DNA of 34,066 nt from a virus (taxonomy: Duplodnaviria > Heunggongvirae > Uroviricota > Caudoviricetes): the IMG/VR virus record IMGVR_UViG_2541047909_000004, positions 1-34,066 of that record; one strand, given 5' to 3'. Each line of letters opens with the position of its first letter. Within the stretch, counting starts at the first letter, position 1. This document shows positions 4,578-24,420 of the stretch, one piece after another. Below the pieces are notes generated by a model. The model did not search any database. It was not told the DNA's origin and was given only the letters and a program-made list of their open reading frames with translations. A program made the translations under genes and the position numbers.

Positions 4578-7500
4578 TCAACGAATACTGATGCCGGAAG
4601 CGGCTTTTTTGGTCACAATCACCGTACAGTCGGTGATATTACCTGCCCACTGATTGCCTTTATGGAAAACCTTAAACTCCAGAGTGACGCTTCCCCTGCC
4701 ACTCGGCATATCAATAACCGCACTGTAGCTACCGGGAATGGCCCCTTTAGTTTCTCTGGATGCGATTAATACACCGTTTTTGCGAACTTCAAAACCATAA
4801 CCCGTGTATCTTGTACCTCCCGGGTTATTACCACTTCCCGGATCGCTATACGCTATTCCGTTAAAGATAATGGGCGGAATAATGATTTGACGGTCAAAGT
4901 TATGATCATCGCTGATGGTGACTGTAACCGTCCCGTTTGGTGTTTCCGTGTTACCCCACGTACCAGCCTGTTTCGGGAATGATTTGGATACAGCTTTAAC
5001 GAAGTCACCTCTGACCTGAGTCGCCTCCAGCATGCCCTTAATCGTACAGTTTTCATTTACCGTGACATTGTTGAGCGTCCCGGCGTTCGCATTCACTCTG
5101 CCACTGATATCCGCATTTTTAGCGGTCAGCTTTCCGTCTGATGTCAGGGAAAATGCCGGTGGATTTCCACCACTGGTAATGGTCGGGGCCGTCAGGCGCT
5201 TCAGGAACACGTCGTTCATAAATATCTGATTGCCCTGCGCCACAAACATCGGCGTTTCATTCCCGTTTGCCGGGTCAATAAACGCGATACGGTTAGCGGC
5301 AACCAGAAACTGGCTCAGCTTGCCTTCTTCCGTGTCCTCCATGCTGAGGCCAATACCCGCGACATAATGTTTGCCGTCTTTGGTCTGCTCAATTTTGACG
5401 CCCCACATGGCATTCCATTTATCGTTGGCGTCCTTCCACTCTTTCGAAAACTCCTCCAGTTTGCTGGCGTTATCCTCCGTCAGCTCGACTTTTTCCAGCA
5501 GCTCCTTGCCGAGATGGGATTCAGTTATCTGGCCTTTGAAAAAATCCAGGTAACCTTCCGCATCATCGCTCGCCCGACCGACAGCCTCCACGAATATCGA
5601 TTTGCCGACGGTGTTCACACTGCGAACGTAAAAATAATAATCATGGCCCGGTTTGATATTGATACTGGCGGCTATCCAGTACAGCGCCGTGCCAAGATAG
5701 CGGGCTGTGGTTTCAACCTGCCTGATATCCGCAATCCGCTTTTCCGAGAACCAGAACTCAAACTGTACAGTCGGATCATAAACCGCAAGATGCGGCGTGG
5801 CGGTTATCTGAAAATAGCCCGGCGTCAGCTCAATCCTCGACGGTGCTGCCGGTGCGGCAATCCGGAACGATACCGACGCCGGATCGCCCTGCTGCCCCCA
5901 CGCATTTACCGCCCGGACTGTCAGTCTGTAGTTCCCCAGCGCCAGTTGCGTGAAGCGGTATGTGGTTTCCGTCGTCCGGGCCGTGCTGACCAGCCGCTCA
6001 CTGCCGTCATCCGCTGTTACGGTCAGACGGAGCAGGAAGCTCACGCCCTTCACCACCTTCGGCGTGTCCCAGCGCGCCAGCACCTGATATTCCCCGCTGT
6101 CTGCGGTGACTTCGGCGGTCAGGTGCTGCACCGCTGGCGGCGTGACACCATTCACCGTGCCGCTCTGGTCGCCGTCAAAGTGCGCCCCGTTATCCACGAT
6201 GGCTTCTTTTTCCGGTACATGCTGCACGGCAGTGATGGCATACGTGCCGTCATCGTTCTCACGGATACTCACACAGCGGAACAGGCGCTGACGCAACGTC
6301 GGCAGCTTCAGCCCCCACACACTGTATTCTGCAACGCCGTCAGGAACCCGGTTCACTTTCACCTTAAGTCCGTCGGTGACGGACTGAACCTCCACGCTGA
6401 CCGGATTACCACTTCCGTCAACCAGGCTTATCAGCGTGGTACCGGAGGATGGCAGCGTGATTTCACGGTCGAGCGTCAGCGTCCGGGTCTGGCTGTTCAC
6501 CGCCAGCACGCGACCACCGGTGCTGATACCGGCATAGTCATCATCGCAGATTTCAATGACATCGCCCGGTACATGGCGAAGCCCTTCAGCACCCACGCTG
6601 AAATCCACGGTCTGCGTCTCCAGCAGTTCAGTTTTAATCAGCCACAGCCCGGCGCGGTGTGCCTGCCCCCGGCTGGTACAGCCAAAAGCATCCATCTTCG
6701 TGACGCTACGACCGTAACGGGCAATGGCCTGCGTGTCCTCCACAAGCTCTGTCGCCGTCTCCCAGCCGTTATTCGGGTCAATCCAGTTCACCTCAACGGC
6801 ATTATGGCGGTCCTTCAGGGCGCTGAAGCTGTAGCGGAACGGCGCACCATCATCCGGCATCACCACATTACTGCGGTTATAGGTCCACACCTTATCCGAC
6901 GGTCGGTCCTGCACGAACGTCAGCGTCTGCCCGTTCCATACCGGCATACAGCGCATCGCCGAGCAGAAATCACTGAGCACATCCCACGCCTTGCGCTGTG
7001 TGGTCAGGTACGCATTACAGGTGATGCGCGGCTCCGTGCCGCCAAAACCGTCCGGCACCGACTGGTCGCAGTAGTGGCCGATGACATACAGCGCCCATTT
7101 GTCCACATCCGCCGCACCAAGACGTTTCCCCATGCCGTAGCGCGGATGGGTCAGCATATCCCACAGACACCAGGCCATGTTGTTGCTGTATGCTGGCTTA
7201 AACGTTCCGTCCCAGATACCGCTGTATTGCCGCGTCTGCGGGTTATAGTTCGACGGCACCTGCAGAATACGCCCGCGCAGATGATAATTACGGCTCACCT
7301 GCTGGCTGCCGAACTGCTCCGAGTCCACCTGCACGCCGACCAGTGCCGTGTTCGGGTAGCACTGTTTCACATCGATGATTTCGGTGTATGACGACCAGAG
7401 CGTTTTGTTCTGCAGCTGGTCTGTGGTGCTGTCCGGCGTCATCCTGCGCATCCGTATATTGAACGGGCGCGGCGGCAGGTTACCCACCACCACCGAGGCC

Positions 7501-8183
7501 AGATACTGCGAGGTGGTTTTGCCCTTAATGGTGATGTCTTTTTCCGTCACCCAGCCACCATTACGCTGTATCTGAACCAGCAGGCGGACTTCCGACGGAT
7601 TCCTGTCCCCCTTTGAGGTGGTTTCCACCAGTGCCTGCACGCCGAAGGTAAAACGCAGTCGGTCAATGTTTGCCGACGTGATGGTCCGGGTGATCGGCGT
7701 GTCGTATTTCACTTCCGTACCCAGCACCGTCTCGGAGCCGGAGGATTCAAATCCCTCCGGCGGTGTCTGCTCCTGCTCACCGGCCCGGAACACCACCGTG
7801 ACGCCGGAGATGTTGGTATTCCCCTCTTCGTCACGCATGTTCTGCATGATGATGCGACGGCGGCGGTAAGCCGGGTCCGCCAGATTCTGCGGATCTTCAT
7901 CCGGCAGGCGACGCAGGGTCATCTGCGGATTCACCTCATGCTTGGGTTTGACATATCCCGGCGTAAATTCAGAGGTGGAGCCGCCACGGGAGCGGATAAC
8001 CTCACCGGAAACAATCGGCGAAACGTACAGCGCCATGTTTACCAGTCCCGGAATTTGTGAGAGATAGACTTTCTCCGTGGTGAAGGGATAGCTCTCACGG
8101 AAAAAGAGACGCAGAAACAGCGGATCAAACTTAAATTTCTGCTCATTTGCCGCCAGCAGCTGGGCGGTTGTGTACATCGACAT
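4578..8183 (-). CDS. In-frame fusion of major capsid protein E N-terminus (aa 1-120) to tail tip/host specificity protein J (lacking ~45 N-terminal aa)
   Basis: Translation starts [30 protein letters not shown]... (lambda E N-terminus) and switches at ...[10 protein letters not shown]|[19 protein letters not shown]... to lambda J sequence; junction near 7823; the displayed ORF start at 8210 is a non-ATG artefact. Confidence 0.8.
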
Positions 8184-8238
8184 AAAAAAATCCCGTAAAA
8201 AAAGCCGCACAGGCGGCCTTTAGTGATGAAGGGTAAAG

Positions 8239-8571
8239 TTAAACGATGCTGATTGCCGTTCCGGCAAACGCGGTCCGTTTTTTCGTCTCGTCGCTGGCAG
8301 CCTCCGGCCAGAGCACATCCTCATAACGGAACGTGCCGGACTTGTAGAACGTCAGCGTGGTGCTGGTCTGGTCAGCTGCAACAGCCAGAATGCCAACGGC
8401 AGCACCGTCGGTGGTGCCATCCCACGCAACCAGCTTACGGGTGGCGGTGTCAAGCATCAGCGGAGTCATTGCAGGCGCTTTCGCACTCAATCCGCCGGGC
8501 GCGGTTGCGGTATGAGCCGGGTCACTGTTGCCCAGCGGCTGGTAATGGGTAAAGGTTTCTTTGCTCGTCAT
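8239..8571 (-). CDS. D: Head decoration protein D
   Basis: 110 aa from the second ATG ([12 protein letters not shown]...AISIV); SD AAGGG; matches lambda gpD by recall. Confidence 0.9.
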
Positions 8572-8580
8572 AAACATCCC

Positions 8581-8976
8581 TTACACTGGTGTGTTCAGCA
8601 AATCGTTAACGGCATCAGATGCCGGGTTACCTGCAGCCAGTGGTGCCGGTGCACCCTGCATCAGACGATCCAGCGCAGTGTCACTGCGCGCCTGTGCACT
8701 CTGTGGTGCTGCGGCCAGAATGCGGCGGGCCGTTTCCACGGTCATTCCGGGGGTTTCTGCCAGCACGCGCGCCTGTTCTTCGCGTCCGTGAGCCTCCTCA
8801 CAGTTGAGGATCCCCATAATGCGGCTGTTTTCTGCCGCAACCGCTGCGGTGATCTGCGCGTTCACGTCCGGCTGCGCCGCGCTGGCGTTTTCGCCCTCCG
8901 TCGCTGGCACCACGTCAGTAACGTCAGCCTGCGAAGCAGTGGCTGAAACAGTTGTTGATTGAGTCTCTTTGGTCAT
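8581..8976 (-). CDS. Nu3: Scaffolding protein Nu3 (in-frame internal start within C)
   Basis: ATG at 8976 with SD CAGGAGG; MTKETQSTTVSATASQ... 131 aa, same frame and stop as C. Confidence 0.75.
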   Translation of the reverse strand: MTKETQSTTVSATASQADVTDVVPATEGENASAAQPDVNAQITAAVAAENSRIMGILNCEEAHGREEQARVLAETPGMTVETARRILAAAPQSAQARSDTALDRLMQGAPAPLAAGNPASDAVNDLLNTPV

Positions 8977-9900
8977 TCGCCCTCCTGAGAGACGGGATTT
9001 ACGTGCATCCAGTGCATCACGCATGACGGTGATCGCATCGGTGCTGTTAACAAGTTCATCAGCCAGTCCGGCATCAATGGCCTCCTGACCGCTGTACACT
9101 GCAGCCTCGGTATCCAGCACAGCCTGCACGGACAGGCCGGTATATGCCGACACCTTCTGCGCAAACATCTGGCGGGTTGCATCCATCCGGGACTGCAGTG
9201 TCTCCCGGACGTCATCCGGAAGATGGCTGTAGGGGTTGCCATCCACCTTATGGCTGCCGCTGTAAATCAGCGTGATTTCCACGCCCTGTTTCTCCAGCGC
9301 AGCACCGTAATTACTGTGAGCCATCATGACGCCGATGGAGCCTGTCCGGGCGGTCTGCGTGACCAGACGCCGGGAGGCGGCGCTGGCAAGCAGCTGACCT
9401 GCACTGCAGTTCATGTCGTTGGCCAGCGCCCATACCGGTTTTATGTCACGCACACGGGCGATGATGTCAGCGCAGTCAAATGTCCCTGCCACCATTCCGC
9501 CGGGCGTGTCCATATCGAGCAGAATGCCGTCCACCATCGGGTCACTGGCAGCCTGTTGCAGACGGGCGATAATGCCGTTGTAACCGGTCATCCCCGAATA
9601 AGGCTGCAGCGCCCGCGTCCGGCTGACCAGCGTACCGGACACCGGCAGCACGGCGATGCCGTTCATGACCTGATAACTGCGGGCCTGTCGTGGTCCGTCA
9701 CCATCACCGACTAACGCCAGCGTCGCGGGTGCCTCTCCGGCAGTCAGGCTGTCGCCGGACACCGCATCCGTCAGGCGGCTGATCCCAAGCTGGCCTGCAA
9801 GCGCACAAAAGAAAACCCGCGCATAAGCGGGTTCAAGCATCAGCGGCTCATTAAAGGCCATGCTGGCAATATGCGGGAGATTACGCAGCTCTGCTGTCAC
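8581..9900 (-). CDS. C: Head protease / minor capsid protein C (S49 peptidase family), GTG start
   Basis: VTAELRNLPHIASMAFNEPLMLEPAYARVFF... matches lambda gpC; GTG at 9900 preceded by AGGAGGAGA. Confidence 0.85.
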   Translation of the reverse strand: MTAELRNLPHIASMAFNEPLMLEPAYARVFFCALAGQLGISRLTDAVSGDSLTAGEAPATLALVGDGDGPRQARSYQVMNGIAVLPVSGTLVSRTRALQPYSGMTGYNGIIARLQQAASDPMVDGILLDMDTPGGMVAGTFDCADIIARVRDIKPVWALANDMNCSAGQLLASAASRRLVTQTARTGSIGVMMAHSNYGAALEKQGVEITLIYSGSHKVDGNPYSHLPDDVRETLQSRMDATRQMFAQKVSAYTGLSVQAVLDTEAAVYSGQEAIDAGLADELVNSTDAITVMRDALDARKSRLSGGRMTKETQSTTVSATASQADVTDVVPATEGENASAAQPDVNAQITAAVAAENSRIMGILNCEEAHGREEQARVLAETPGMTVETARRILAAAPQSAQARSDTALDRLMQGAPAPLAAGNPASDAVNDLLNTPV

Positions 9901-10663
9901 TCTTCTCCTCCTCTGTTGATTGTCGCAGCCCGGATTCAAATGCCGCAGCCGCCCAGGCGGGCGGTTTAAGACCAGCCGCACGGCGCTCCATCGTTTCACG
10001 GACCTGCTGGGCAAAAATTTCCTGATAGTCGTCACCGCGTTTCGCGCACTCTTTCTCGTAGGTGCTCAGTCCGGCTTCTATCAGCATCACCGCTTCCTGA
10101 ACTTCTTTCAGACCATCGATGGCCATACGACCGGAGCCTATCCAGTCGCAGTTCCCCCAGGCACTGCGGGCTTCCTGAAAGCTGAAGCGCGCTTTTGAAG
10201 GTAACGTCACCACGCGGCGAACGATGGCCTCTTCCAGCCAGCACAGAAACATCTGGCTCGCCTGACGGGATGCGACGAATTTTCGCCGTCCCATAAAGTG
10301 CGCCCACGACTCGTTCGCGCTGGCCCGTGCCGTGGAGTAGCTCATCTGGGCGTAATTCCGGGAAAGCTGCTCATACGAGACACCCAGCCCGGCAGCGATA
10401 TACCGCAGCAGTGACTGCTCAAACACGGAGTAGCCGTTATCCGTGTCCTGAGCCGTCTGCAGGTTCAGTGAGTCACCCGGCATCAGGTGCGGCACTTTTG
10501 CGCCTCCCAGCCGGACCGGTGCGGCGGAGTAATACGCGGCAATTTCACCAATCCAGCCGGTCAGCCTTTCCCGCTGCTCCTGACTGTTCGCGCCCAGAAT
10601 AAAATCCATCGCTGACTGCGTATCCAGCTCACTTTCAATGGTGGCGGCATACATCGCCTTTAT
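9881..10663 (-). pseudogene. B: Portal protein B, C-terminal fragment (about residues 273-533)
   Basis: ...KAMYAATIESELDTQSAMDFILGANSQEQRERLTGW...EEEKSDSRAA matches the lambda portal C-terminus; homology stops at about 10663 where unrelated AT-rich DNA begins. Confidence 0.85.
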
Positions 10664-11098
10664 GAAAAGACAGGAAAAAATAAAATTTAAAAACAGTACA
10701 TTACGAATGCTCAGACCTATCGTTTAAAGGAGTCGCAATACACACTGCAATACACGATTATTTATAAGATGAGCGGCATCCGTCATAAAGCTGGTGGATG
10801 CTTTTTCTATGCATATATGCACAGTTTTAGTGGGCGTTAATGTCGATATAGGGATCCCCATATCGAGATTGGATACCTGGCTTTTTTCCGGTTAACCTTT
10901 AATCAGGCTGGTGGGCTTTACCTGTTTTGTATGAGTGGTCATCATGACCATGTCATAACAAAAACCCCATATTCGTGGTTTTTCTGTGTCGGGCTATTCT
11001 GTCGTTGCTGTGCTGATTTGACTGGTGGGCTGAATCATCATTACGGCGATGCAGCTATGTAGACGTTCCGGCCTCCTCAAATTGAGGATTGTGGAAGA

Positions 11099-11225
11099 AT
11101 CAATGGGTTAGTCTTACTTTCCCGACATCCCCCAATGGGGGTTTTCGAAACAATCAATAGCTTAGGCTTACTTCCCCGATTTCCTGCATTGCAGGTTTTC
11201 GAAATAATCAATGGGTTAGGCCATC
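11099..11225. repeat. Two and a third tandem 54-bp units, each containing a 5-bp-stem hairpin followed by GTTTTCGAAA
   Basis: Unit 1 (11099-11152) and unit 2 (11153-11206) align over their length, with stems CCCCCAATGGGGG versus CCTGCATTGCAGG; partial third unit at 11207. Confidence 0.7.
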
Positions 11226-11469
11226 GTGCAATTTTGCACTTTGCCAGCCAGCGCAATGTCGCGTTATCAGTCCTCAGATGTGAGGGATGTAGCCAGCTTT
11301 TCCCCCAGTGGGGGATATCCAGCACCGACGGCTTAACTGTGCGTGCCAGCACAAGGTAGCCTTGAACTACTTACTGCATCCCATCTTACAGGCCGTGCCT
11401 TCCTGCTTAACTTTTTGCAATGCAACAAGTCAGCCAGCGCAATTTTGCGTTATCGGGAATATCAGCAAG

Positions 11470-11751
11470 TTACCGCCGCAATCGTTCCGGCTTCTTCCAC
11501 TGGTAAGTATTTTTCGCGCTCTCCCTCCGTTGTTGAGAACGGCGACGATATGCCAGCAACTCAAGGACTCTTGTTCGTATGTTGCGCATATCCACGCCGT
11601 TAAGCTCAATACCGTCACGGCGCATCACCTCAGCCACTACACGCACATAATTATCTGCGGTCACGCTGTCCGGCTGCGTGGCCTGTTCGTCATGCTGCTT
11701 GCTGATTCCACAAGCACGGCGGATTAATCGCAGTATTTCGGATTCAGTCAT
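11470..11751 (-). CDS. Small basic protein (93 aa) downstream of terS-like gene, function unknown
   Basis: ORF starting 11 nt after the terS-like stop; no clear SD; Arg-rich C-terminus. Confidence 0.45.
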   Translation of the reverse strand: MTESEILRLIRRACGISKQHDEQATQPDSVTADNYVRVVAEVMRRDGIELNGVDMRNIRTRVLELLAYRRRSQQRRESAKNTYQWKKPERLRR

Positions 11752-11762
11752 AGCGTACTACG

Positions 11763-12305
11763 TTACTTATCTTTATTCGGCTGCAACTTATCCGGTACGT
11801 TTCCGGCAGTTTCCATCAGATAATCGGACAGCATCAGCGGTATGTTTTCGTCAAGTTTTGCGCATGCGTTACAGGCTCTGATAACTTCTTTTTTCAGTCC
11901 ATCCAGCATAGACGGCTTCATGTCGGGAAACTTCCTTGTCATGGCAAGCGGCAGGCTGTCCATGATTGAAGAAATCTGACTCGCCAATTTTGAAAGCACG
12001 TATATACAAAACGCTGTATCAATAACGTCGCCGCGTTCGCGCTCGTTTTTAAGCTCCTGCGCCTCTGCCTGTGCTGTCAGCAATCTGATCCTGACTCGTA
12101 GGAGTTCATCATCATCAATCTCGCCTTTGTCGTCTGTAATCTGGTTAATTGCATTGCTAACCCGATTGTCTATTACGCTGGCAACATCATAAAACGCCTC
12201 GCGGCCTTTACGTTCAACGGGAGTCACTCCCCACTTGTCGAACGCTGTCGCACTTACACGGCAGCTTTGCGCCATGTTTTTTTTGTTCATCAGGTGCGAT
12301 TTCAT
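11763..12305 (-). CDS. Terminase small subunit homologue (Nu1-like), second copy in the window
   Basis: ...LLTAQAEAQELKNERERGDVIDTAFCIYVLSKLASQISSIMDSLPLAMTRKFPDM... parallels Nu1 ...LTRAQADAQELKNARDSAEVVETAFCTFVLSRIAGEIASILDGIPLSVQRRFPEL...; start uncertain (ATG at 12305, 12290 or 12275). Confidence 0.75.
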   Translation of the reverse strand: MKSHLMNKKNMAQSCRVSATAFDKWGVTPVERKGREAFYDVASVIDNRVSNAINQITDDKGEIDDDELLRVRIRLLTAQAEAQELKNERERGDVIDTAFCIYVLSKLASQISSIMDSLPLAMTRKFPDMKPSMLDGLKKEVIRACNACAKLDENIPLMLSDYLMETAGNVPDKLQPNKDK

Positions 12306-12438
12306 CAATATCCCCACTTAAGTAATGTTTCAGGTTGGTGTATTGGCTTTATCTTTTCCTTTTTATTCATAGAGATAGAGCGAGCAACAAAACCACCACC
12401 AGCACCCGAAAAAGGCTCATAAATAGCGAAAACCCGCG

Positions 12439-12450
12439 AGGTCGCCGCCC
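12439..12450. other. Second cosN-like site (AGGTCGCCGCCC) within a ~65-bp block near-identical to the prophage cos
   Basis: 12418-12482 matches 18063-18127 except GTAGCCTACCGG versus GTAACCTGTCGG; sequence between cosN and the adjacent terS gene is unrelated between the two copies. Confidence 0.8.
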
Positions 12451-12506
12451 CGTAGCCTACCGGATCGCCGGAAAGGACCCGCCAGCCAGAACGGGCCCTA
12501 ATTTCA

Positions 12507-12890
12507 TCAACCAATCAACTTATAGCGACCATCCCGTGCATTGCGACGTACACGCTCAATCTTGAGGCATAGCGCCGCATCTGGCTTTTTTGGGACAGGT
12601 ACGCGGCAATATTCAGAAGATCGAGGAATATTGTTTATCCAGTCGATCACTTCACTTAAATACCAGGCCTTACGCCCTTCCGTAACCTGTACGCGTTCGG
12701 GGAACTCTCCGCGAGCCTCAAGGTTTAGCAATGTGCGACGGCTAAGGGTAGTAAGTTCCATCACCTGATTCATATCAACAAGGCGTTCACTTAAACGCAT
12801 TTTGTCAGCAATAGCCTTTAATTCCTCTACTGCTGGATCCGGATACATCATTTCGGCAATTGGCTTAAGGTCATTGTAATGATTCTGCAT
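12507..12890 (-). CDS. AlpA-like helix-turn-helix regulator (127 aa)
   Basis: Central motif ...LTTLSRRTLLNLEARGEFPERVQVTEGRKAWYLSEVIDWI... resembles the AlpA/excisionase-type HTH; SD AAGGGGGAT before the ATG at 12890. Confidence 0.6.
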   Translation of the reverse strand: MQNHYNDLKPIAEMMYPDPAVEELKAIADKMRLSERLVDMNQVMELTTLSRRTLLNLEARGEFPERVQVTEGRKAWYLSEVIDWINNIPRSSEYCRVPVPKKPDAALCLKIERVRRNARDGRYKLIG

Positions 12891-12901
12891 TGTATCCCCC
12901 T

Positions 12902-13243
12902 TTACACACGAGCCAGCGGCTGAACAGAAATACCTGAGCCAACAAACGCGGCAACCTTTGCCGACAGTTCTTTTACAGACTCAGGCCAGTTCAGAGCATC
13001 AACATTTAAAACACCTGTCTTATAAACCTGTGCCTGTGTTTTTTTCGCTGTGTCGATTTGTACAGCGGAAACATAAACCGCTTTACCTACGCTCGAACCA
13101 TCCCATACCACCAGTGCACCTGTTGCATCTTCCTGCATCAGTGGCGTAAATGCAGGAATTACCCCTTTATTAGCTGAAAATATCCCCAGCGTAGTCACCA
13201 GTGCTTCAGTGCCAGCCATGAGTTCAGTGTAATGAGTAGCCAT
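12902..13243 (-). CDS. Head decoration protein homologue (gpD-like, diverged)
   Basis: ...ALVVWDGSSVGKAVYVSAVQIDTAKKTQAQVYKTGVLNVDALNWPESV... parallels lambda D ...[47 protein letters not shown]...; SD AAGGGGGAG. Confidence 0.7.
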   Translation of the reverse strand: MATHYTELMAGTEALVTTLGIFSANKGVIPAFTPLMQEDATGALVVWDGSSVGKAVYVSAVQIDTAKKTQAQVYKTGVLNVDALNWPESVKELSAKVAAFVGSGISVQPLARV

Positions 13244-13252
13244 TGCTCCCCC

Positions 13253-14299
13253 TTAGCCAATGCGAACGGTAACAAAACGATTGATGCGGGCCGGTATTGG
13301 CTGTGGTGCTGAATGTGTCTGCACATATTCAATAGCCGGATCACCAGGCACAATATAGTTTTTCGGTGCAAGTTCGGCTTTAGTCAGCCCCATTCGGATT
13401 AGCTCCGGATCCTGAATACCGCCATAGGCGACAATCCCCTGAAGAGCCGTATTGCCAAGCACCATCAAATCAGGATCAAGGAAATGTTTTTCTGTTCCGT
13501 CCTCGTCGGTATAACGCCCGCTGTAAACAACAATCGCAACATCGCCCATATACCCTTTAAAACTCACCGAATCACCAAGGTCTTTAAGGGCCGTTTCCAG
13601 TTCGGAATTAGAACCACGACGGGTATCCAAAGCCTCTTTTATCGCTCTGAATGAACGGTATTTCTTCCATACATTACCACCCATAATGATGATATTAGTG
13701 ACGCCCTCACTAAATTCTGCGTAGCTCTCAATATCATCATTTGGATCAAAAGTTTCTTTATCCTTACCTGACCACTCAGTACCGCCAGACTGAGTGATGA
13801 TATTTTGTGGTTTTATATTCCAGTCCAGCTCATAACGTTCAATACCATCGCCCTCAATGATATTTTTCCCCGTTGTGATTGCCTGAACAGCAAGCCATTC
13901 AATACGTGCACGAATAGCTTTAGCCTGATTTACAATCGCCTGTTTAACTTTAATATTACGCGCCCCAAAAGCATTGTATTGCTCAGGTGACACACCAGCA
14001 GGGCGCACAGCTAACTTATTTGGATCAATGCTGCTTTTCGGCTTCATATAACCTGGACGAATTGTTTTTGATTCGTATCCCTCATCTCGTGAAACTTTAC
14101 TGCCCACCATAGGAGAGCAAAACGCCGCGATCGGGATATTTGGATCGTCGATCGTATCAAGAATAATGTCTCTCGATTCAAACATTACCGAGCGAGTGAA
14201 AAACAAACTGGTAAACAACGCATTTAATTTTTTTTGCACATCTTCAGCATTAGCCACCTGCACAAGCTGTGTAGGCGAATATAAATCAACCATACTCAT
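13253..14299 (-). CDS. Major capsid protein homologue (gpE-like, diverged)
   Basis: MSMVDLYSPTQL... start aligns with lambda [11 protein letters not shown]; shared motifs NIITQSGGTEWS, LDTRRGSNSELETA, GDVAIVVYSG; the upstream extension of the ORF to 14380 is probably not translated. Confidence 0.75.
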   Translation of the reverse strand: MSMVDLYSPTQLVQVANAEDVQKKLNALFTSLFFTRSVMFESRDIILDTIDDPNIPIAAFCSPMVGSKVSRDEGYESKTIRPGYMKPKSSIDPNKLAVRPAGVSPEQYNAFGARNIKVKQAIVNQAKAIRARIEWLAVQAITTGKNIIEGDGIERYELDWNIKPQNIITQSGGTEWSGKDKETFDPNDDIESYAEFSEGVTNIIIMGGNVWKKYRSFRAIKEALDTRRGSNSELETALKDLGDSVSFKGYMGDVAIVVYSGRYTDEDGTEKHFLDPDLMVLGNTALQGIVAYGGIQDPELIRMGLTKAELAPKNYIVPGDPAIEYVQTHSAPQPIPARINRFVTVRIG

Positions 14300-14510
14300 C
14301 CTCTTTACATTCATTACAAATAATTGTGAATATATTCTATTACCGATGTCTGCTATGCGAATACATGCAATCAAGTGCAATGTTGTATAAAATATGCCGT
14401 AACAACTTCAGTGCTGATAATTCGTGTTAATGTATTTACTTCCTTTGGTCGGGATTTATGTAGCATGCCGGAAAATCTATTTTTTTCCGGCATCTTTTTG
14501 TTTGCAGAAT

Positions 14511-14787
14511 TTAAAACGGTATATTATCGCCGTACGGATCATCATTCCCCGACTGTTGTTTTGCCCTGTTCAGTGCGTCAGTGGCCTGCCCCTGCTGGCC
14601 TTTTTTGCCGCCCGGTCGCGCCGTTCGCGCACTGATTACGCTGTCTGCGATAACCTGCCAGCCCCGCCGCGTTTCGCCGTTCTGGCCTGTCCACTGGCTT
14701 ACCTGCATGTTACCCGCCACGCTCACCAGTTCGCCTTTGTGGTGTTTTGCCAGTGCGTCGGCCTGTCTGCCAAACGCCAGGACGGAT
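14511..14787 (-). pseudogene. ssb: Single-stranded DNA-binding protein (SSB) C-terminal fragment
   Basis: ...GELVSVAGNMQVSQWTGQNGETRRGWQVIADSV...DDPYGDNIPF with the SSB-type acidic tail; N-terminal OB-fold half missing, cut at the junction with B. Confidence 0.65.
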
Positions 14788-17360
<2,573 letters not shown>

Positions 17361-17386
<26 letters not shown>

Positions 17387-17906
17387 TCAGCAACCCCGGT
17401 ATCAGTTCATCCAGCGCGGCTGCTTTGTTCATGGCTTTGATGATATCCCGTTTCAGGAAATCAACATGTCGGTTTTCCAGTTCCGGAAAACGCCGCTGCA
17501 CCGACAGGGGGATCCCGTCGAGAATACTGGCAATTTCACCTGCGATCCGCGACAGCACGAAAGTACAGAATGCGGTTTCCACCACTTCAGCGGAGTCTCT
17601 GGCATTCTTCAGTTCCTGTGCGTCGGCCTGCGCACGCGTAAGTCGATGGCGTTCGTACTCAATAGTTCCTGGCTGGAGATCTGCCTCGCTGGCCTGCCGC
17701 AGTTCTTCAACCTCCCGGCGCAGCTTTTCGTTCTCAATTTCAGCATCCCTTTCGGCATACCATTTTATGACGGCGGCAGAGTCATAAAGCACCTCATTAC
17801 CCTTGCCACCGCCTCGCAGAACGGGCATTCCCTGTTCCTGCCAGTTCTGAATGGTACGGATACTCGCACCGAAAATGTCAGCCAGCTGCTTTTTGTTGAC
17901 TTCCAT
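17361..17906 (-). CDS. Nu1: Terminase small subunit Nu1
   Basis: 181 aa, MEVNKKQLADIFGASIRTIQNWQEQGMPVLRGGGKGNEVLYD... as in lambda. Confidence 0.9.
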
Positions 17907-18083
17907 TGTTCATTCCACGGACAAAAACAGAGAAAGGAAACGACAGAGGCCAAAAAGCTCGCTTTCAGCACCTGTCGTTTCCTTTCTTTTCAGAGGGTAT
18001 TTTAAATAAAAACATTAAGTTATGACGAAGAAGAACGGATACGCCTTAAACCGGAAATTTTTCATAAATAGCGAAAACCCGCG

Positions 18084-18095
18084 AGGTCGCCGCCC
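18084..18095. other. cosN cohesive-end site of the prophage (within lambda-like cos)
   Basis: AGGTCGCCGCCC (reverse complement of GGGCGGCGACCT) flanked by lambda left-end and right-end sequence, about 180 bp upstream of Nu1. Confidence 0.85.
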
Positions 18096-18294
18096 CGTAA
18101 CCTGTCGGATCGCCGGAAAGGACCCGCAAAATGATAATAATTATCATCTACATGTCACAACGTGCATCTACGCCATCAAACCACGTCAAATAATCAATTA
18201 TGACGCAGGTATCGTATTAATTGATCTGCATCAACTTAACGTAAAAACAACTTCAGACAATACAAATCAGCGACACTGAATACGGGGCAACCTC

Positions 18295-18850: not shown

Positions 18851-19144
18851 ATGAAAAAAATGTTGTTTTCTGCCGCTCTGGCAATGCTTATTACAGGATG
18901 TGCTCAACAGACGTTTACTGTTGGAAACAAACCGACAGCAGTAACACCAAAGGAAACCATCACCCATCATTTCTTCGTTTCGGGAATTGGACAGGAGAAA
19001 ACTGTTGATGCAGCCAAAATTTGTGGCGGCGCAGAAAATGTTGTTAAAACAGAAACCCAGCAAACATTCGTAAATGGATTTCTCGGTTTTATTACTTTAG
19101 GCATTTATACTCCGCTGGAAGCGCGTGTGTATTGCTCACAATAA
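18851..19144 (+). CDS. bor: Bor lipoprotein (serum resistance)
   Basis: MKKMLFSAALAMLITGCAQQ... lipobox LITGC; 97 aa; opposite strand to late genes as in lambda. Confidence 0.9.
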   Translation: MKKMLFSAALAMLITGCAQQTFTVGNKPTAVTPKETITHHFFVSGIGQEKTVDAAKICGGAENVVKTETQQTFVNGFLGFITLGIYTPLEARVYCSQ

Positions 19145-19175
19145 TTGCATGAGTTGCCCATCGATATGGGCAGCT

Positions 19176-19637
19176 CTATCTGCACTGCTCATTAATATAC
19201 TTCTGGGTTCCTTCCAGTTGTTTTTGCATAGTGATCAGCCTCTCTCTGAGGGTGAAATAATCCCGTTCAGCGGTGTCTGCCAGTCGGGGGGAGGCTGCAT
19301 TATCCACGCCGGAGGCGGTGGTGGCTTCACGCACTGACTGACAGACTGCTTTGATGTGCAACCGACGACGACCAGCGGCAACATCATCACGCAGAGCATC
19401 ATTTTCAGCTTTCGCATCAGCTAACTCCTTCGTGTATTTTGCATCGAGCGCAGCAACATCACGCTGACGCATCTGCATGTCAGTAATTGCCGCGTTCGCC
19501 AGCTTCAGTTCTCTGGCATTTTTGTCGCGCTGGGCTTTGTAGGTAATGGCGTTATCACGGTAATGATTAACAGCCCATGACAGGCAGACGATGATGCAGA
19601 TAACCAGAGCGGAGATAATCGCGGTTACTCTGTTCAT
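19176..19637 (-). CDS. Rz: Spanin inner-membrane subunit Rz
   Basis: [44 protein letters not shown]... 153 aa; ATG overlaps the R stop. Confidence 0.9.
19235..19417 (-). CDS. Rz1: Spanin outer-membrane lipoprotein Rz1 (embedded in Rz, +1 frame)
   Basis: 60 aa, ...[19 protein letters not shown]...[29 protein letters not shown]. Confidence 0.85.
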
Positions 19638-20131
19638 TGCTGACCCCACAAACAGATTTCACGCTCAATCTCACGACGAGTCATGAGACCTTTCCATTGC
19701 TTACCGCCAGCATATGTCCAGCGACGTAGCTGATCACATGCGCCTTTGATATCGCCCTGGTTTATTTTGCGAAGAAGCGTCGATGTTCTGAAATTGCCAG
19801 CACCCACGTTGTAAACGAATGAGTAAAGAGCGCCGCGCATTGTTTCCGGTATATCGACTTTGATGTACGGGTTAATTTGTCTGGCGACCGTGGCAAGGTC
19901 TTTATTCAGGAGGGCTTTGCATTCTGCTTTGGTATACGTTTTACCGAGCATGATGTCTTTTCCTGTATGCCCGTGACATACAGTCCATACACCAACAATA
20001 TCTTTGTATGGTATGTAGCTGACACCTTCCAGACCATCGTTACCACTTGGGCCAGTGATTAACACTGATGCTATAGCAATTGCTCCGCCACCAATAGCAG
20101 CAGCAACGGCTTTTCGTAATGATGGAGGCAT
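19634..20131 (-). CDS. R: SAR endolysin (phage-21-type lysozyme)
   Basis: 165 aa, [44 protein letters not shown]... N-terminal signal-anchor-release domain. Confidence 0.85.
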
Positions 20132-20346
20132 TATTCACCTCTCGCAGCCTTGCGCTTATCTTCTTTAATCTTGAAATAAAGGTTTGTCAGGTACGTCAGC
20201 AGGCCAAATACCAGGCTACCCAGCACACCTATTGCTGCCCACTGTGAGGGCGTGACTTTATCGAGCAGCTGTAAAAACCAGTAACCGGCACTACCTGCTG
20301 AGGTGCCATAGGCGACACCCGTTGTTAACTTATCCATGGATTTCAT
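20131..20346 (-). CDS. S: Pinholin (S21-type), dual-start motif MKSMDK
   Basis: 71 aa with two transmembrane segments; directly upstream of the SAR endolysin. Confidence 0.85.
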
Positions 20347-20471
20347 AACCCCACCTCGCAGACAAAGCGGGTGTAAATTAAGGGGATATTACGTATCGCA
20401 ATAAAGGCAGAAACGTAACAGATTCGGAGTCAGTGAATAACTCAGGTATTGGGTTATCAGCTAATATCGAG

Positions 20472-20508
20472 ACTCAAAAAATGGAAAAACCCGCTCGACG
20501 GCGGGTTT
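20472..20508 (-). terminator. Rho-independent terminator upstream of S (candidate late tR')
   Basis: Minus-strand AAACCCGC/GCGGGTTT stem followed by TTTTCCATTTTTTGAG, about 140 bp upstream of the S start. Confidence 0.6.
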
Positions 20509-20934
20509 AAGCTGTGTGACGAAGTAACCACTCTTAACAGCATAACCAATTTTTTACGTACGTAAACTACTAAATGATATTTGTGAGAATGCCACCGAGT
20601 GTTCAAAACACCACCACAAATACATAAGAAAACTTCAACAAATAATCAGTTAATAATTTCCGATGTTATTTTTAGTTTGTTTAAATTAAGCTAAAGAATT
20701 ATAGAGCACTTATAAATAAGTGCCATTAATATAAATTAGCTAATAGATTTATTTTTGTTCAGACAAGAGCCATGAATAGGATTAGATAGAAAAGGTTCAG
20801 ATAAAAATAGAGATCTACTTCACAAATTAAATGAGAAACTAAAACTTACATCTTGAAATAATCACATTGATTAGATGAATATTTATCGCGCAGTGACATC
20901 ATTTTTTAATAATAGTTCAAAAAAAGGGCGTACA

Positions 20935-22017
20935 ATGAAAAAATTAACAGTGGCAATTTCTGCTGTAGCTGCATCAGTACTGATGGCGATGTCTGCTCAG
21001 GCAGCTGAAATTTATAATAAAGACAGTAACAAGCTGGATCTATACGGGAAAGTTAATGCCAAGCACTACTTCTCCTCTAATGATGCAGATGATGGTGATA
21101 CTACTTATGCCCGTCTTGGCTTCAAAGGTGAAACCCAAATCAACGATCAACTGACTGGTTTCGGTCAGTGGGAATATGAATTCAAAGGCAACCGTGCTGA
21201 ATCTCAAGGTTCTTCCAAAGACAAAACCCGTCTTGCATTTGCAGGCCTGAAATTTGGTGATTACGGCTCCATCGATTACGGCCGTAACTACGGTGTAGCA
21301 TACGACATCGGTGCGTGGACTGACGTTCTGCCAGAATTCGGTGGTGATACCTGGACCCAAACAGATGTGTTCATGACTGGTCGCACTACTGGTGTTGCAA
21401 CTTATCGTAACAACGACTTCTTTGGTCTGGTCGATGGCCTGAACTTTGCTGCTCAGTATCAGGGTAAAAATGACCGCACTGACGTAACTGAAGCCAATGG
21501 TGATGGTTTCGGTTTCTCCACTACTTATGAGTATGAAGGATTCGGCGTGGGTGCAACCTATGCTAAATCAGATCGCACTGACGGTCAGGTCGCCTATGGT
21601 AAGAGCAAATTCAATGCCTCCGGCAAAAATGCGGAAGTATGGGCTGCAGGCCTGAAATATGATGCGAACAATATCTATCTGGCTACCACATATTCTGAAA
21701 CTCAGAATATGACCGTTTTTGGTAATAACCATATTGCAAACAAAGCACAAAACTTTGAAGCAGTAGCACAATATCAGTTTGACTTCGGTCTGCGCCCATC
21801 TGTTGCTTACCTTCAGTCAAAAGGTAAAGACCTTGGTGTTCATGGTGACCGAGACTTAGTCAAGTATGTCGATGTCGGTGCTACTTACTACTTTAATAAA
21901 AACATGTCTACTTTTGTTGATTACAAAATCAACTTAATTGACGATAGTAAGTTTACCAAAACAGCTGGTATTGATACCGACGACATCGTCGCTGTAGGTC
22001 TGGTTTATCAGTTCTAA
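20935..22017 (+). CDS. nmpC: Outer membrane porin (OmpC/OmpF family; NmpC/Lc-like phage porin)
   Basis: 360 aa with signal peptide [38 protein letters not shown] start of mature porin and C-terminal ...VGLVYQF. Confidence 0.85.
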
Positions 22018-22027
22018 TCTGACTTAC

Positions 22028-22068
22028 GAAAAAGATATGTTGCGGGAGGCTTTGCCTCCGCAACATAT
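22028..22068 (-). terminator. Hairpin with T-run on the minus strand (terminator after Q operon)
   Basis: ATATGTTGCGGGAGGC/CCTCCGCAACATAT stem; A-run on plus equals U-run for the minus-strand transcript. Confidence 0.5.
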
Positions 22069-22154
22069 AAGTGGAGCCCTCAAGCCACTTCCTTTAGAAG
22101 CACTACCTTGCTTCTTACTATATAAACCTTCTGTTATATATTACCCTTTATTTT

Positions 22155-22180
22155 GGGGGCGTTTCCACGCCCCATTTTTA
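22155..22180 (+). terminator. Rho-independent terminator downstream of porin gene
   Basis: GGGGCGT-TTCC-ACGCCCC followed by ATTTTTA. Confidence 0.6.
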
Positions 22181-22205
22181 ATAACTTTTAGTAAACAATT
22201 GCATA

Positions 22206-22589
22206 TCAATTAGAATTATTAGCAACGATATCCATATCTAACCGGATATCTAATGCCATTAACATCCCTTCAATTATGCCCTCAGCCTTCTGTAACCTTT
22301 TCCCGATATAACCATCCGAGCAGCAATGCTTACTTGCCAGTGACATGAATGTCATACCACATACATAATAATCTACTAATAAATCGTGTAAATCGCTGTT
22401 GTTCTTTTTCAGACGGGCCATGCACCCGCAAATGATCATCGCGTCATCGTCACAACAATGCGGGCGAGATTTTACTTTTGAAGGAATTAATCCCTTAAAA
22501 CCGGCGGCAATGGACGACCAGGCCACATCTTCATGATTATTAGCCGCCCACGCTCCCCAACGTTCAAGAACCATCTGAATATCACGCAT
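22206..22589 (-). CDS. Q: Late-gene antiterminator Q (phage 82/QuuD type)
   Basis: [22 protein letters not shown]...[16 protein letters not shown]... Cys-rich Q82-like; position upstream of the lysis genes. Confidence 0.8.
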
Positions 22590-22606
22590 TAACTTTCTCC
22601 ACAAAA

Positions 22607-23602
22607 TCAGGCCAGCACACCAATCGCCAGTGCGCGATCGATAAAACGAAATATCAGCTCCAGCTGGGAGCCATACTTCTCTTCAAATGCCACGGTATCC
22701 GCATGCAGTTCGTCGTGGTGTTTTCTGCACAAAGGCAGCACAAAAAGGTCATGCGCTTTTGTACCCATTCCACCCTGACCATGGCCTATCAGATGATGCG
22801 GATCATCAGCTGGCTTTCCACAACATGCACACGGCTGCGTCTTAACCCAGCGCGTGTACTGTTCATTAACCCAGCGACGACGTTTGGGGCGTAACATAAA
22901 AGACTCCGGCGACTCCGGATCCACTTTCAGCGCCAGCACCTTTTTCGCTTTATCCTGGATAATGCTGGTGGCAGGAACCGAAGGCACAAGGTCACTTTCC
23001 CGGGTGACAGACGGCAAAACAGACTTCGGTAATCTCAGTGCCTTACGGGCTGCGCTTTCCGGTAAGGCATCCGCCAGGTCATTACGAACCAGCCACCAGC
23101 ACAGTTCCGGCATTGTCACGGCATGGTTATCATTAAAATCGAGATCCCGACGGACTACAGACAACACCCAACGGGCACAGTTATCCGTTGCCATTGATTC
23201 CAGCCGCTCCGTGAACTGATCACGTAACTGATTATCGCAGTGCCAGCACAGACGGATTGCGCCCGGCGCGTGTCGCATTGTGGTCATGTTCTCGCTGTGC
23301 CAGTCGGAATGAGGCCACTGGCAGCCTTTTTCACGAAGTAACCAGCTTTCAAGACATTCCACCCCACCAGCACGACGAATCACTGCCTCATTACGGAACA
23401 CGGCCCGAACGGCAGGATCATCCGCCAGCGGTTGTGATGCCGCGGGAACGGCACCACTGGCGAAAGATGAATAATGCTCCGGCTCAGGCTCCAGCAGTAC
23501 ACGCCCCTGCATAAACAGGGGCATCAGCTCTGAACCGGGCCTGAACAATACGATCCCCATACGCGGGGCAATTTCAGGGGTCAATAGTGCTCTCACGGTC
23601 AC
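22607..23602 (-). CDS. DUF968-like protein with Cys/His-rich C-terminal motif (putative HNH-like nuclease)
   Basis: ...[43 protein letters not shown]...; start uncertain (GTG at 23602 or ATG at 23560). Confidence 0.6.
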
Positions 23603-23603
23603 C

Positions 23604-24401
23604 TCAATGAACGGTATCGAGCAGCTTTAACAGCTCAGGGAATCGGGATTCGAAGAAATGCGGCTGCGTCTCGCGCGGATTTGCGGGACTGGTGATGTTC
23701 TTGCCGAACATGCAGCCTTTCGCTGTCAGCGACCAGAATTTTTTGATGTTGTTAATCGCGGTACGGCTGTATCGTTCGCGCTGCTCGACGATCCCCAGCT
23801 TCACCATCTGGTGATATGCCTGATTAGCTGTCAGGCGGATACCATACTGCTTCAGCAGTGCACTCAGTGACAGCGTGGGACGGCTTGAGCCATCAGGCGC
23901 GTCAGCAGGAGCATCAATGGCATAGCGCGGTGCCAGATTCGGTAAGCCAACAGCCTCCTGGAGTTTCTGACAGGCACCAAGCACTGAAGAGTTAGACAGG
24001 TTTAACTCCCGGCGCATAAAGTCCAGCAGAATCACGCCAGCCTGCATCTTGTCAGCAGCCTGCCCGGATAATTTTTCCGATGCGCTGGTTACCATATCGA
24101 AAGTACGGATCACCTTCAGATGGAATGACGGGCTGATCCACATTGCATAGGCATACACCAGTTCTTTGCAGACATACGTCCCCTGGTTATTTCCGCCACG
24201 AATAACGTTAACTGGCTCTATATTGACCGAGTTGCAAATCTGCAACTCGCTTATTAAACGTTCAGTTTGCTCATTGCGGAGCCAGAATGCAGGCTTATGC
24301 TTATCCAGAGAACCGGCAGCCCTGTGCAGATCGTTCAGGCTGTAACGCCCATAAGCATCACGACGAACTTCAATACCATCAATGACCATCAGATTATTCA
24401 T
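23604..24401 (-). CDS. KilA-N domain protein
   Basis: N-terminal VIDGIEVRRDAYGRYSLNDLHRAAG...KPAFWLRNEQTERLISEL typical of KilA-N; ATG at 24401 with SD GAGGAG. Confidence 0.7.
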   Translation of the reverse strand: MNNLMVIDGIEVRRDAYGRYSLNDLHRAAGSLDKHKPAFWLRNEQTERLISELQICNSVNIEPVNVIRGGNNQGTYVCKELVYAYAMWISPSFHLKVIRTFDMVTSASEKLSGQAADKMQAGVILLDFMRRELNLSNSSVLGACQKLQEAVGLPNLAPRYAIDAPADAPDGSSRPTLSLSALLKQYGIRLTANQAYHQMVKLGIVEQRERYSRTAINNIKKFWSLTAKGCMFGKNITSPANPRETQPHFFESRFPELLKLLDTVH

Positions 24402-24420
24402 ACTTCGTTTCTCCTCTTGA

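Follow-up and report, generated by a model that had tools for sequence, protein, structure and literature searches.

A second cos site in a defective lambda-like prophage, assigned to a satellite remnant with a putative N15-type packaging specificity of its own

The viral sequence IMGVR_UViG_2541047909_000004 of the IMG/VR collection, analyzed over its full length of 34,066 nucleotides and referred to below as the window, contains a defective lambda-like prophage in which two cos sites and two small-terminase genes are found. In the current work the second of these sites, cos2, is assigned by gene content and collinearity with intact relatives to the stump of a satellite of the phage-inducible chromosomal island (PICI) type, located inside the prophage as a PICI of the helper-embedded kind (HE-PICI), and it is this satellite that explains the presence of two cos sites and two small-terminase genes in one lambda-like prophage. 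Comparison with related elements and analogy with known packaging systems make it likely that cos2 is the satellite's packaging site, which would combine a cosQ and a cosN of the helper type with an N15-type cosB and a small-terminase gene (terS) of its own, and would thereby redirect the packaging machinery of the helper.

Anatomy of the two cos sites

Positions within a cos site are numbered in the lambda orientation, corresponding to the minus strand of the window, with bp 1 being the first G of GGGCGGCGACCT; cos1 designates the helper site and cos2 the satellite site. The 12-nt cosN sequence AGGTCGCCGCCC occurs exactly twice in the window (12439-12450 and 18084-18095), in the same orientation and 5,645 bp apart. 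An earlier reading of the window made from its letters (the sequence-only reading) had described 12418-12482 as nearly identical to 18063-18127, this 12-nt sequence included, and the alignment bears this out with 62 of 65 positions being identical, an agreement which cannot be due to chance. The shared block encompasses the cosQ core GGGTCCT, the spacer between cosQ and cosN (in which all three mismatches are located), cosN itself, and bp 13-34. The cosQ core of cos2 (12474..12480, minus strand), a 7-mer which we take to be lambda cosQ, has the same sequence and the same distance to cosN as the cos1 copy (18119-18125). The cosN of cos2 (bp 1-12; 12439..12450, minus strand), with the cohesive end GGGCGGCGACCT, is the same as that of cos1 and that of the cos of a canonical lambda-type prophage (L022), and the CG nick contexts around it are present in the flanking ACG and CGCG. 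Between cosN and R3, bp 13-34 (CGCGGGTTTTCGCTATTTATGA; 12417..12438, minus strand) are likewise the same in cos1 and cos2. Outside the shared block, identity between the two sites is at background level on both flanks, as determined in 10-nt bins.

According to the sequence-only reading, the segment between cosN and the adjacent small-terminase gene was unrelated in the two copies. This holds for the lambda-type R repeats, since a scan for 12-mer pairs retrieved R3, R2 and R1 from cos1 and none from cos2, and such repeats are therefore rejected for cosB2 (the cosB of cos2). It does not hold for the layout: in an ungapped comparison of bp 36-150, 46 of the 115 positions agree (shuffled sequences, 30.3 +/- 4.7; 46 or more in 21 of 20,000 shuffles), register 0 being the best among offsets of +/-12, and the R3-spacer-R2 geometry is kept. 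The two cosB regions look like distant homologues which have their layout in common and differ in their R sequences, i.e. in the sequences to which TerS would bind.

The blocks of which cosB2 is composed surfaced only through comparison across satellites combined with the N15 motif. For this purpose ten satellite cos sites were compared, originating from Escherichia coli, the Enterobacter/Citrobacter group, Kosakonia and Superficieibacter, with TerS identities down to 57-60%. No indels were found between cosN and bp 122 among these ten sites, all of which keep the cosQ 7-mer GGGTCCT as well as an unchanged core of bp 13-34 (CGCTATTTATGA), a core also found with one change in N15, and in a Thalassotalea phage. 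The cosQ site has been described as a 7-bp, highly conserved site (PMC4669245). When identity was determined per segment between the E. coli-type and the Enterobacter-type satellites, an alternation of conserved and variable blocks was obtained: 87% for cosN, 76% for bp 13-34, 44% for bp 35-47, 88% for bp 48-68 (designated R3'), 43% for the spacer at bp 69-103, 67% for bp 104-122 (designated R2'), and 27% for bp 123-140. R3' is thus level with cosN between flanks of 43-44%, and R2' stands out from flanks of 27-43%.

R3' (GCTGGTGGTGGTTTTGTTGCT; 12383..12403, minus strand) is proposed, from its conservation and position, as the primary binding site of the satellite TerS. It lies in exact register with R3 of N15 (bp 48-59, GAGGTTGTTGTT) and R3 of lambda (bp 50-65), and has a GT-rich, three-base periodic motif in common with the former: bp 48-59 of the satellite (GCTGGTGGTGGT) show 7/12 in-register identity to N15 R3 and the same G-N-T periodicity. 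N15 R3 has been mapped by mutation, scrambling of bp 54-59 being accompanied by an approximately 100-fold drop in yield (PMC4669245). R3' is followed by an A+T-rich spacer (bp 69-103; 12348..12382, minus strand), which occupies the position of lambda I1 and is constant in length in the ten satellites, and then by R2' (GCCAATACACCAACCTGAA; 12329..12347, minus strand), an R-like block in inverted orientation, located where lambda has R2. The reverse complement of R2' (CAGGTTGGTGTAT) matches N15 R3 at 10 of 13 positions, and is thus closer to it than R3', while the block is also similar to the R2 (AATACAACAACCT) of a Monarch-type prophage. A degenerate R1'-like block is found at bp 131-143 (TAAGTGGGGATAT; 12308..12320, minus strand), where it overlaps the ribosome-binding site of terS. 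At the same position three other satellites (L003, L004 and L006) have TAAGTTG(G/T)GGTAT, which is a direct copy of R forming an inverted repeat with R2'. Considering that this block is decayed in the window copy and missing from the Enterobacter-type satellites, its role is uncertain. A promoter and terminator scan around cos2 returned nothing informative.

The helper site cos1 (17907..18127, minus strand) consists of cosQ, cosN and a lambda-type cosB (R3, I1, R2 and R1), and is nearly identical to the cos of L022; the scan recovered its R3, R2 and R1 repeats together with a match of I1 to the consensus of integration host factor (IHF). It lies upstream of the helper Nu1 gene (17361-17906, minus strand; PF07471, E 9e-101; matches to the lambda TerS structures 6hn7_B and 1j9i of the PDB) and the gene of the large terminase (TerL) gpA (15461-17386, minus strand), which together span 15461..17906. 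The gpA gene encodes 641 aa of the GpA_ATPase and GpA_nuclease families, as called in metagenome contigs of window-like layout. At 18040 (bp 56) the R3 of cos1 has CGTATCC, versus CGTTTCC in L022. Since bp 56 of R3 is reported to be a critical Nu1 contact, the defective prophage's own cosB may be impaired at this position.

The satellite small terminase, its class and its distribution

The satellite terS gene (11763..12305, minus strand) specifies a protein of 180 aa which combines an N15-like winged-helix DNA-binding domain with a C-terminal half of the Nu1 family. The open reading frame (ORF) had been taken in the sequence-only reading for a diverged Nu1-like TerS, correctly so: its product matches PF07471 with an E value of 3.6e-24 (85.7 bits against a cut-off of 30; profile positions 80-162) as well as phrog_57, and is 37% identical over its full length to the resident Nu1 (BLASTP E 3e-36). 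Its closest phage relative is gp1 of N15 (47.6%). The two parts of the protein differ in this respect, the first 50 residues having an identity of 58% to N15 gp1 versus 36% to the resident Nu1, and the C-terminal half being roughly equidistant from both (43-48%), with a central region that shows 48% identity to Nu1 and contains long conserved runs such as AQA-AQELKN and TAFC. In the region of the recognition helix, SATAFDKWGV of the satellite TerS corresponds to SVQAFDKWGV in N15 and to IRTIQNWQEQ in lambda. Compared with SVQAFDKW of N15, both SATAFDKW (E. coli type) and GVTAFDKW (Enterobacter type) match at 6/8 positions, and a Monarch-type prophage (L023) at 8/8.

An AlphaFold2 (AF2) model of the satellite TerS predicts the order beta, alpha1, alpha2, beta-hairpin (wing), alpha3, corresponding to a winged helix. 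The best PDB match of this model is a TerS DNA-binding domain of the lambda family (7lwr_A; target TM 0.71, root mean square deviation 2.0 A over 51 columns), with MerR-like domains ranking next. The dN/dS ratio of terS is 0.18-0.21 for the whole gene and 0.05-0.09 for the DNA-binding domain, demonstrating purifying selection on the gene which is strongest in that domain; the C-terminal tail is the least conserved part of the protein among satellites. From cos2 to terS (11763-12510), the window and an intact element (H51) are 100% identical.

Gram-negative cos-type PICIs have been described as employing a one-protein strategy based on Rpp (PMC6739421), and the possibility that the satellite TerS is itself an Rpp was rejected, as it gave no PDB match to Rpp and no BLASTP alignment to RppA, whereas RppA of strain CFT073 matched RppC (6hlk) at 5e-31. 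The 127-aa protein encoded upstream of cos2 was rejected as an Rpp as well, being AlpA-like.

A prophage of E. coli with a recognition helix identical to that of N15 (L023) was used as a stand-in for the Monarch phages. N15 R3 and the Monarch group are said to have been first defined by Feiss et al. 2015 (Virology). The group combines N15 specificity with a lambda-like tripartite cosB (PMC4669245); correspondingly, L023 has the cosQ and cosN of lambda and a tripartite cosB that makes use of a closely related R sequence. The same GT-rich R motif is located upstream of N15-class terS genes in real phages or prophages of E. coli, Pseudomonas, Glaciecola and Thalassotalea, and in the latter three terS is followed by a gpA-like TerL gene. 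The description of the cosB and terS of cos2 as private in the sequence-only reading could not be upheld, in that both appear to belong to the N15/Monarch class, which is represented in real phages and prophages and in hundreds of E. coli PICIs.

Compared with this class, the satellite resembles N15 and Monarch in its N15-like DNA-binding domain (58%) and in a GT-rich R at bp 48-59 in the register of N15 R3, and resembles Monarch furthermore in having the cosQ and cosN of lambda followed by R3, a spacer and an inverted R2. It differs in that it lacks a TerL of its own, in two positions of the recognition helix, in an R with GGTGG or GGTTGG rather than GGTTGTT, in an R1 that is degenerate or absent, and in a spacer in which no IHF consensus was found. 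The difference in R is a consistent one, the satellite consensus being GGTTGGTGTAT / GGTGGTGG versus GGTTGTTGTAT in Monarch/N15, just as it is for the helix (SATAFDKW versus SVQAFDKW). This suggests that the cosB2/TerS combination of the satellite is a diverged pair, and not a copy of the Monarch/N15 one. By this comparison, cosB2 appears to be a diverged member of the N15/Monarch class carried by an element that lives with helpers of lambda specificity.

The interchangeability of the two halves of TerS has an experimental precedent. A chimeric TerS composed of the DNA-binding domain of N15 and the C-terminus of lambda is functional with the TerL of lambda, and the resulting terminase packages DNA with an N15-type cosB, which the terminases of lambda and phage 21 are unable to do for N15 DNA; lambda TerL also cleaves variant right halves of cosN (PMC4669245). 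A natural counterpart of this laboratory hybrid is, judging from the identities of its two halves, the terS of a Superficieibacter satellite (L016, 4001-4513). It has a satellite DNA-binding domain, 86-90% identical to that of the Enterobacter-type satellites, and a C-terminal half with 73% identity to lambda Nu1, versus 38-47% there for the other satellites. TerS itself is modular, with a separable DNA-binding domain and C-terminal half.

The cos2-terS module is present at a query coverage of at least 80% in 762 of 5,426 complete E. coli genomes, and a unit of the rppA/B type in 97 at the same coverage, making the TerS type approximately eight times commoner than the rppA/B type, with the RppC type left uncounted because the DNA search would miss RppC-type islands. 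A scan of genome contigs with a single TerS protein yielded 0 loci, and an alignment-based scan yielded six. The cosB blocks are conserved jointly with the DNA-binding domain of TerS in satellites from five genera.

The relation between the TerS and Rpp types becomes apparent from EcCICFT073, which was located in the CFT073 chromosome with the order capsid, decoration, 137-aa ORF, cos1, rppA, inverted cos2 and 93-aa ORF. This island and the TerS-type island L003 of O157:H7 occupy the same phoQ site. The two are 96.6% identical from capsid through decoration, cosQ and cosN up to bp 42 of cos, past which they have nothing in common until just before the 93-aa gene. As the identity is interrupted at bp 42 and resumes near the 93-aa gene, cosB and the gene of its reader are inherited as one cassette which starts at bp 43 of cos, and in which terS is, by position, the counterpart of the experimentally proven rppA.

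Some further features of these islands were observed. L003 (11780-11900) and EcCICFT073 (L024 8265-8345, its cos2) each have a second, inverted cos flanked by the reader gene and the 93-aa gene, and the window element lacks one. The cosB of the second L003 site looks lambda-like (TCCGATCTTCTTC versus TCCGTTCTTCTTC for lambda R3), which suggests a back-up site readable by helper Nu1. In cos1 of EcCICFT073, the proposed Rpp-binding core ACACCACCACCAC (L024 7611-7623, bp 53-65), when reverse-complemented, gives the (GGT)n core found in the TerS-type R3' (GGTGGTGGTGGT, bp 48-59), and its distance to cosN is nearly the same; this could be a coincidence, the result of a local inversion, or a sign of related sites being read in opposite orientation. 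Variation was also seen in cosN. A satellite embedded in a capsid gene (L006, 9518-9768; E. coli NZ_CM128546) has the same cosB and terS with the cosN GGGCGTCAGGCG, and further variants were found in Kosakonia (GGGCGGCAGACT) and as a Superficieibacter type (GGCGTCGACCT), so that four cosN variants accompany one type of cosB. The notion that the cosN of a satellite always matches that of the resident helper was rejected, because L006 and L022 disagree.

A proposed packaging route and its alternatives

The route proposed here builds on the observed layout of the site, the homologies, the joint conservation of cosB and the DNA-binding domain, and the boundaries of the cassette, and from these we infer DNA binding, recruitment of gpA and competition with Nu1. 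The satellite would integrate into the portal gene of its lambdoid helper prophage. Its cosQ, its cosN and the next 22 bp being of the helper (lambda) type, helper gpA would nick and terminate at cos2. From approximately bp 43 onward, the satellite cosB would offer an N15/Monarch-class R at the R3 position, an A+T-rich spacer of fixed length and an inverted R at the R2 position, with R3' and R2' being bound by the N15-like winged-helix domain of the satellite TerS, while the Nu1-family C-terminal half of this protein would multimerize and recruit helper gpA. Helper Nu1 would not be expected to read cosB2, given that lambda cannot package DNA with an N15-type cosB, and satellite concatemers would be packaged only by gpA together with the satellite TerS, which would also compete with Nu1 for gpA.

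A number of observations weigh against this scheme. The last 30-40 residues of the satellite TerS, which correspond to the gpA-binding part of lambda Nu1, are present and alignable, and are only about 47% identical to Nu1, for which reason productive binding of the satellite TerS to helper gpA is an assumption. The AF2 model is of moderate quality (pLDDT 67.5, pTM 0.27), and the Foldseek E value of its PDB match is weak (0.03). The likeness of R2' to the R motif is marginal when taken alone, as about 5% of shuffled cosB sequences match equally well. The sequence-only reading had pointed to R elements and an IHF site as features to be sought next to cos2; N15-type R3' and R2' blocks were indeed found, lambda R repeats were not, and the IHF consensus WATCAANNNNTTR is absent at no more than one mismatch from bp 1-160 of the E. 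coli-type satellites, a threshold which I1 of cos1 passes; N15 is also without I1. The resident helper of L006 (L022 6730-7030) has the canonical GGGCGGCGACCT, from which the satellite's cosN departs by five differences, of which one falls in the sensitive left half; to judge from these sequences, the resident prophage is not always an obviously matched helper. Finally, the satellite in the window is unable to excise or replicate, because int, attL and the replication genes are gone, and the prophage is unable to build virions, because tail genes have been lost. The window copy is probably inert, and is almost certainly an immobile relic in which the sequence of cos2-terS is intact. Redirection of packaging towards a foreign element, which the sequence-only reading had considered plausible, therefore gains from the co-conserved cosB and TerS, the exchange of the cassette and the precedent of the lambda-N15 chimera, and could nevertheless not run unaided here, since the satellite is a non-excisable remnant and the prophage is devoid of tail genes.

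A different use of the same protein would be that of an adaptor, as with Rpp: satellite TerS and Nu1 would form mixed oligomers, tethered to gpA via Nu1, which read cosB2 and are blind to the helper cosB, the contact being made through the dimer interface of the DNA-binding domain or through the conserved central oligomerization region. The position of terS in the exact rppA slot of EcCICFT073 argues for this, as do the mode of action of Rpp, which heterodimerizes with helper TerS (PMC6739421), the 48% identity of the central region to Nu1, and the low conservation of the C-terminal tail among satellites. Rpp, however, needs helper TerS since it is without the last 30-40, TerL-binding residues (PMC9026076), whereas the satellite TerS keeps a full-length Nu1-type C-terminal half under purifying selection and has no sequence similarity to RppA or RppC. 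Replacement of Nu1 is preferred over the adaptor mode because the satellite TerS possesses a putative TerL-binding end, which Rpp lacks; the adaptor mode is considered unlikely, even though the two are compatible and not mutually exclusive.

It is less probable still that cos2 merely mimics the cos of natural helpers belonging to the Monarch/N15 class of lambdoid phages, in which case terS would be an inconsequential captured late gene and no redirection would occur. Real E. coli prophages do exist with the cosQ and cosN of lambda, an N15-identical helix and a related tripartite cosB (L023; the Monarch group, PMC4669245), these PICIs are documented to have captured late genes from helpers, and some HE-PICIs lack terS and share approximately 258 bp of helper cos (PMC10111431). 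Yet the intact helper-embedded copies examined are located in prophages of lambda specificity, with Nu1 and a lambda cosB; strong purifying selection acts on the satellite terS, which accompanies cosB in five genera; and the R consensus and the recognition helix of the satellites are both consistently unlike those of Monarch/N15. That cos2 arose from the prophage cos by segmental duplication or as a recombination scar, and has no separate biology, would fit the 62/65 identity of two sites lying in the same orientation 5.6 kb apart in one prophage. The identity, though, ends abruptly on both sides in satellite genes, and the cos-terS unit occurs at no fewer than three chromosomal PICI sites without a surrounding prophage, by which this explanation is for practical purposes refuted.

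The proposed replacement of Nu1 by a satellite TerS is to be placed among several known systems. The nearest is cos1/RppA of EcCICFT073 (Fillol-Salom et al. 2018, 2019; Murialdo & Feiss 2022), which belongs to the same enterobacterial PICI family and has the same late order (capsid, decoration, small ORF, cos, reader gene, 93-aa ORF), a lambda-type cosQ and cosN, a cosB unlike that of the helper from about bp 43, and a reader gene adjoining this cosB with a proposed site at the R3 position (bp 48-65). In the satellite studied here, however, the reader is a 180-aa TerS of the Nu1 family with a full C-terminal half, rather than an Rpp of 139-154 aa without the TerL-binding end, and the site consists of an N15-type R3', spacer and R2', where for Rpp islands a single R3 equivalent has been described. 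The pac-type pathogenicity islands (SaPIs) of Staphylococcus aureus, which employ TerS and Ppi, are alike in that a satellite small-terminase homologue reads only satellite DNA and borrows the large terminase of the helper (PMC6739421), but theirs is a headful (pac) system with an unrelated TerS family, whereas the satellite here is of the cos type and must keep the cosN and cosQ of the helper; no Ppi-like inhibitor was identified in it. The cos-type SaPIs such as SaPIbov5 carry a helper-type cos for packaging by the helper terminase (PMC6092414), and differ in using the cos sequence and the packaging machinery of the helper with no separate recognition pair. The HE-PICIs (Tommasini, Mageeney & Williams 2023; PMC10111431) show the four-zone gene organization that is also seen here. 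One of them, Eco567.11capE, is reported to be without terS and to have 258 bp of cos, cosB included, in common with its helper (90% identity; PMC10111431); the satellite here differs from it in having a different cosB and a terS of its own, and the window copy in being a deletion remnant.

Already known, therefore, are HE-PICIs, the combination of helper-type cosN and cosQ with a foreign cosB in cos-type PICIs, the terminases of pac-type SaPIs, and the N15/Monarch class; it has also been stated that "some" Gram-negative PICIs carry a terS homologue (PMC6092414). In the literature available to us, no account was found of a cos-type PICI with its own full-length TerS of the Nu1/N15 class and a matching cosB, nor of the cassette relationship between terS and rppA, the predominance of the TerS type in E. 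coli, or a functional study of it. We put forward tentatively, with slightly less than even confidence, that most cos-type PICIs of E. coli and its relatives use an orthogonal TerS/cosB pair derived from N15/Monarch in place of an Rpp adaptor, swapped as a cassette from bp 43. If so, the pair would have drifted from every phage specificity, and its exchangeable C-terminal half would plug into the large terminases of different helpers; packaging would also be one-way, in that the helper could not package the satellite and the satellite terminase could use helper gpA. Such cassettes would represent natural orthogonal cos/TerS pairs, usable for example in engineered transducing particles. For satellite piracy of cos packaging in Gram-negative bacteria there is at present a single explanatory model, that of Rpp, and the TerS module would follow a different logic in the same slot. 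It bears on questions left open in the Rpp papers, namely the origin of Rpp, the presence of two cos sites per island, and whether TerL is recruited only via the C-terminus of TerS. The functional consequence within the window is low, as befits a relic, and the class is of moderate interest.

The satellite remnant and its surroundings

The satellite remnant extends over 10661..14786 (minus strand) and constitutes the right 4.1 kb of an HE-PICI of approximately 10.9 kb, with a truncated ssb at its left end and attR at its right end. HE-PICIs are inserted in a late gene of a lambdoid helper prophage, and sites in gene B are among the five sites that hold 97% of them (PMC10111431). In the window the portal gene B is split into an N-terminal fragment (14787-15261) and a C-terminal fragment (9881-10660), between which all satellite genes are located on the strand of the late operon. 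Alignment of the uninterrupted portal gene of L022 with an intact element (L001, E. coli NZ_CP062871) gives two pieces overlapping by 13 bp (query 880-892), the right piece ending at window position 10660; this 13-bp duplication inside the portal gene corresponds to the attR core (10648..10660, no strand assigned).

In 58 complete E. coli genomes the intact 10.9-kb element is found interrupting the portal gene of a prophage of this type, and the window DNA is 99.7-99.9% identical to the right end of the element among the matches listed. The order in the intact element is int, AlpA, Bro-N, Icd, primase, ssb, capsid, decoration, AlpA, cos, terS and 93-aa ORF. The left-end tyrosine integrase and AlpA, and likewise the element's own primase and replication module, are absent from the window copy; integrase, AlpA and primase are present in the intact relatives. 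Window 7824-14791 is collinear with L001 at 99.1%, relative to which 19292-26407 of the latter is missing, comprising the N-terminus of ssb, primase, Icd, Bro-N, AlpA, int, attL and 347 bp of the portal gene.

Compared with the intact composite of satellite and helper, the window has undergone two deletions, each with a junction flanked by microhomology. One removed the region from the middle of ssb through int and attL into the portal gene (junction 14787-14791, portal'-'ssb). The other fused the helper capsid gene E to the tail gene J with loss of the intervening tail genes (junction 7824-7826), generating a capsid E'-'J tail-fibre fusion ORF (4578-8210). The deletion junction was found in 0 of the 5,426 complete E. 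coli genomes. The junction is regarded as natural and not as an artefact, because the exact fusion protein and the doubly deleted layout recur on contigs of many public samples, the protein being indexed in 59 blocks of the collection.

The remaining satellite genes (all minus strand) comprise the 3' fragment of ssb (approximately 14511-14786), which is the only piece of the replication module left in the window, a gpE-like major capsid gene (13253-14293; Pfam PF03864) and a gpD-like decoration gene (12902-13243; Pfam PF02924), the order of the latter two being the same in every relative examined. Directly upstream of cos2 is the AlpA-family gene of 127 aa (12507..12890; PF05930; PDB 8c3t, an AlpA family phage regulatory protein, E 8e-11). 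Downstream of terS is a 93-aa ORF (11470..11751; phrog_1561, function not assigned). It follows the reader gene in TerS-type and Rpp-type PICIs alike, and is a candidate for an accessory packaging or interference factor.

In the right arm of the satellite, approximately 420-560 bp from the att core, three tandem 54-bp units were observed (11074-11219). Each contains a match to the IHF consensus on the plus strand (AATCAATGGGTTA in two units and AATCAATAGCTTA in the third) beside a short hairpin, the stems of which differ between units (TCCTCAAATTGAGGA, CCCCCAATGGGGG and CCTGCATTGCAGG). The units match no Rfam family, and a search of the window for known RNA families at the Rfam gathering thresholds gave 0 matches. 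The units could represent a recombination-arm architecture or an array of small structured RNAs. Elsewhere in the prophage, annotated relatives suggest that 20875-22017, located between the Q antiterminator and the lysis genes, is an OmpC-family porin gene, and that a bor/iss-type lipoprotein gene is present near cos1 (approximately 19000-19300); both would constitute lysogenic-conversion cargo.

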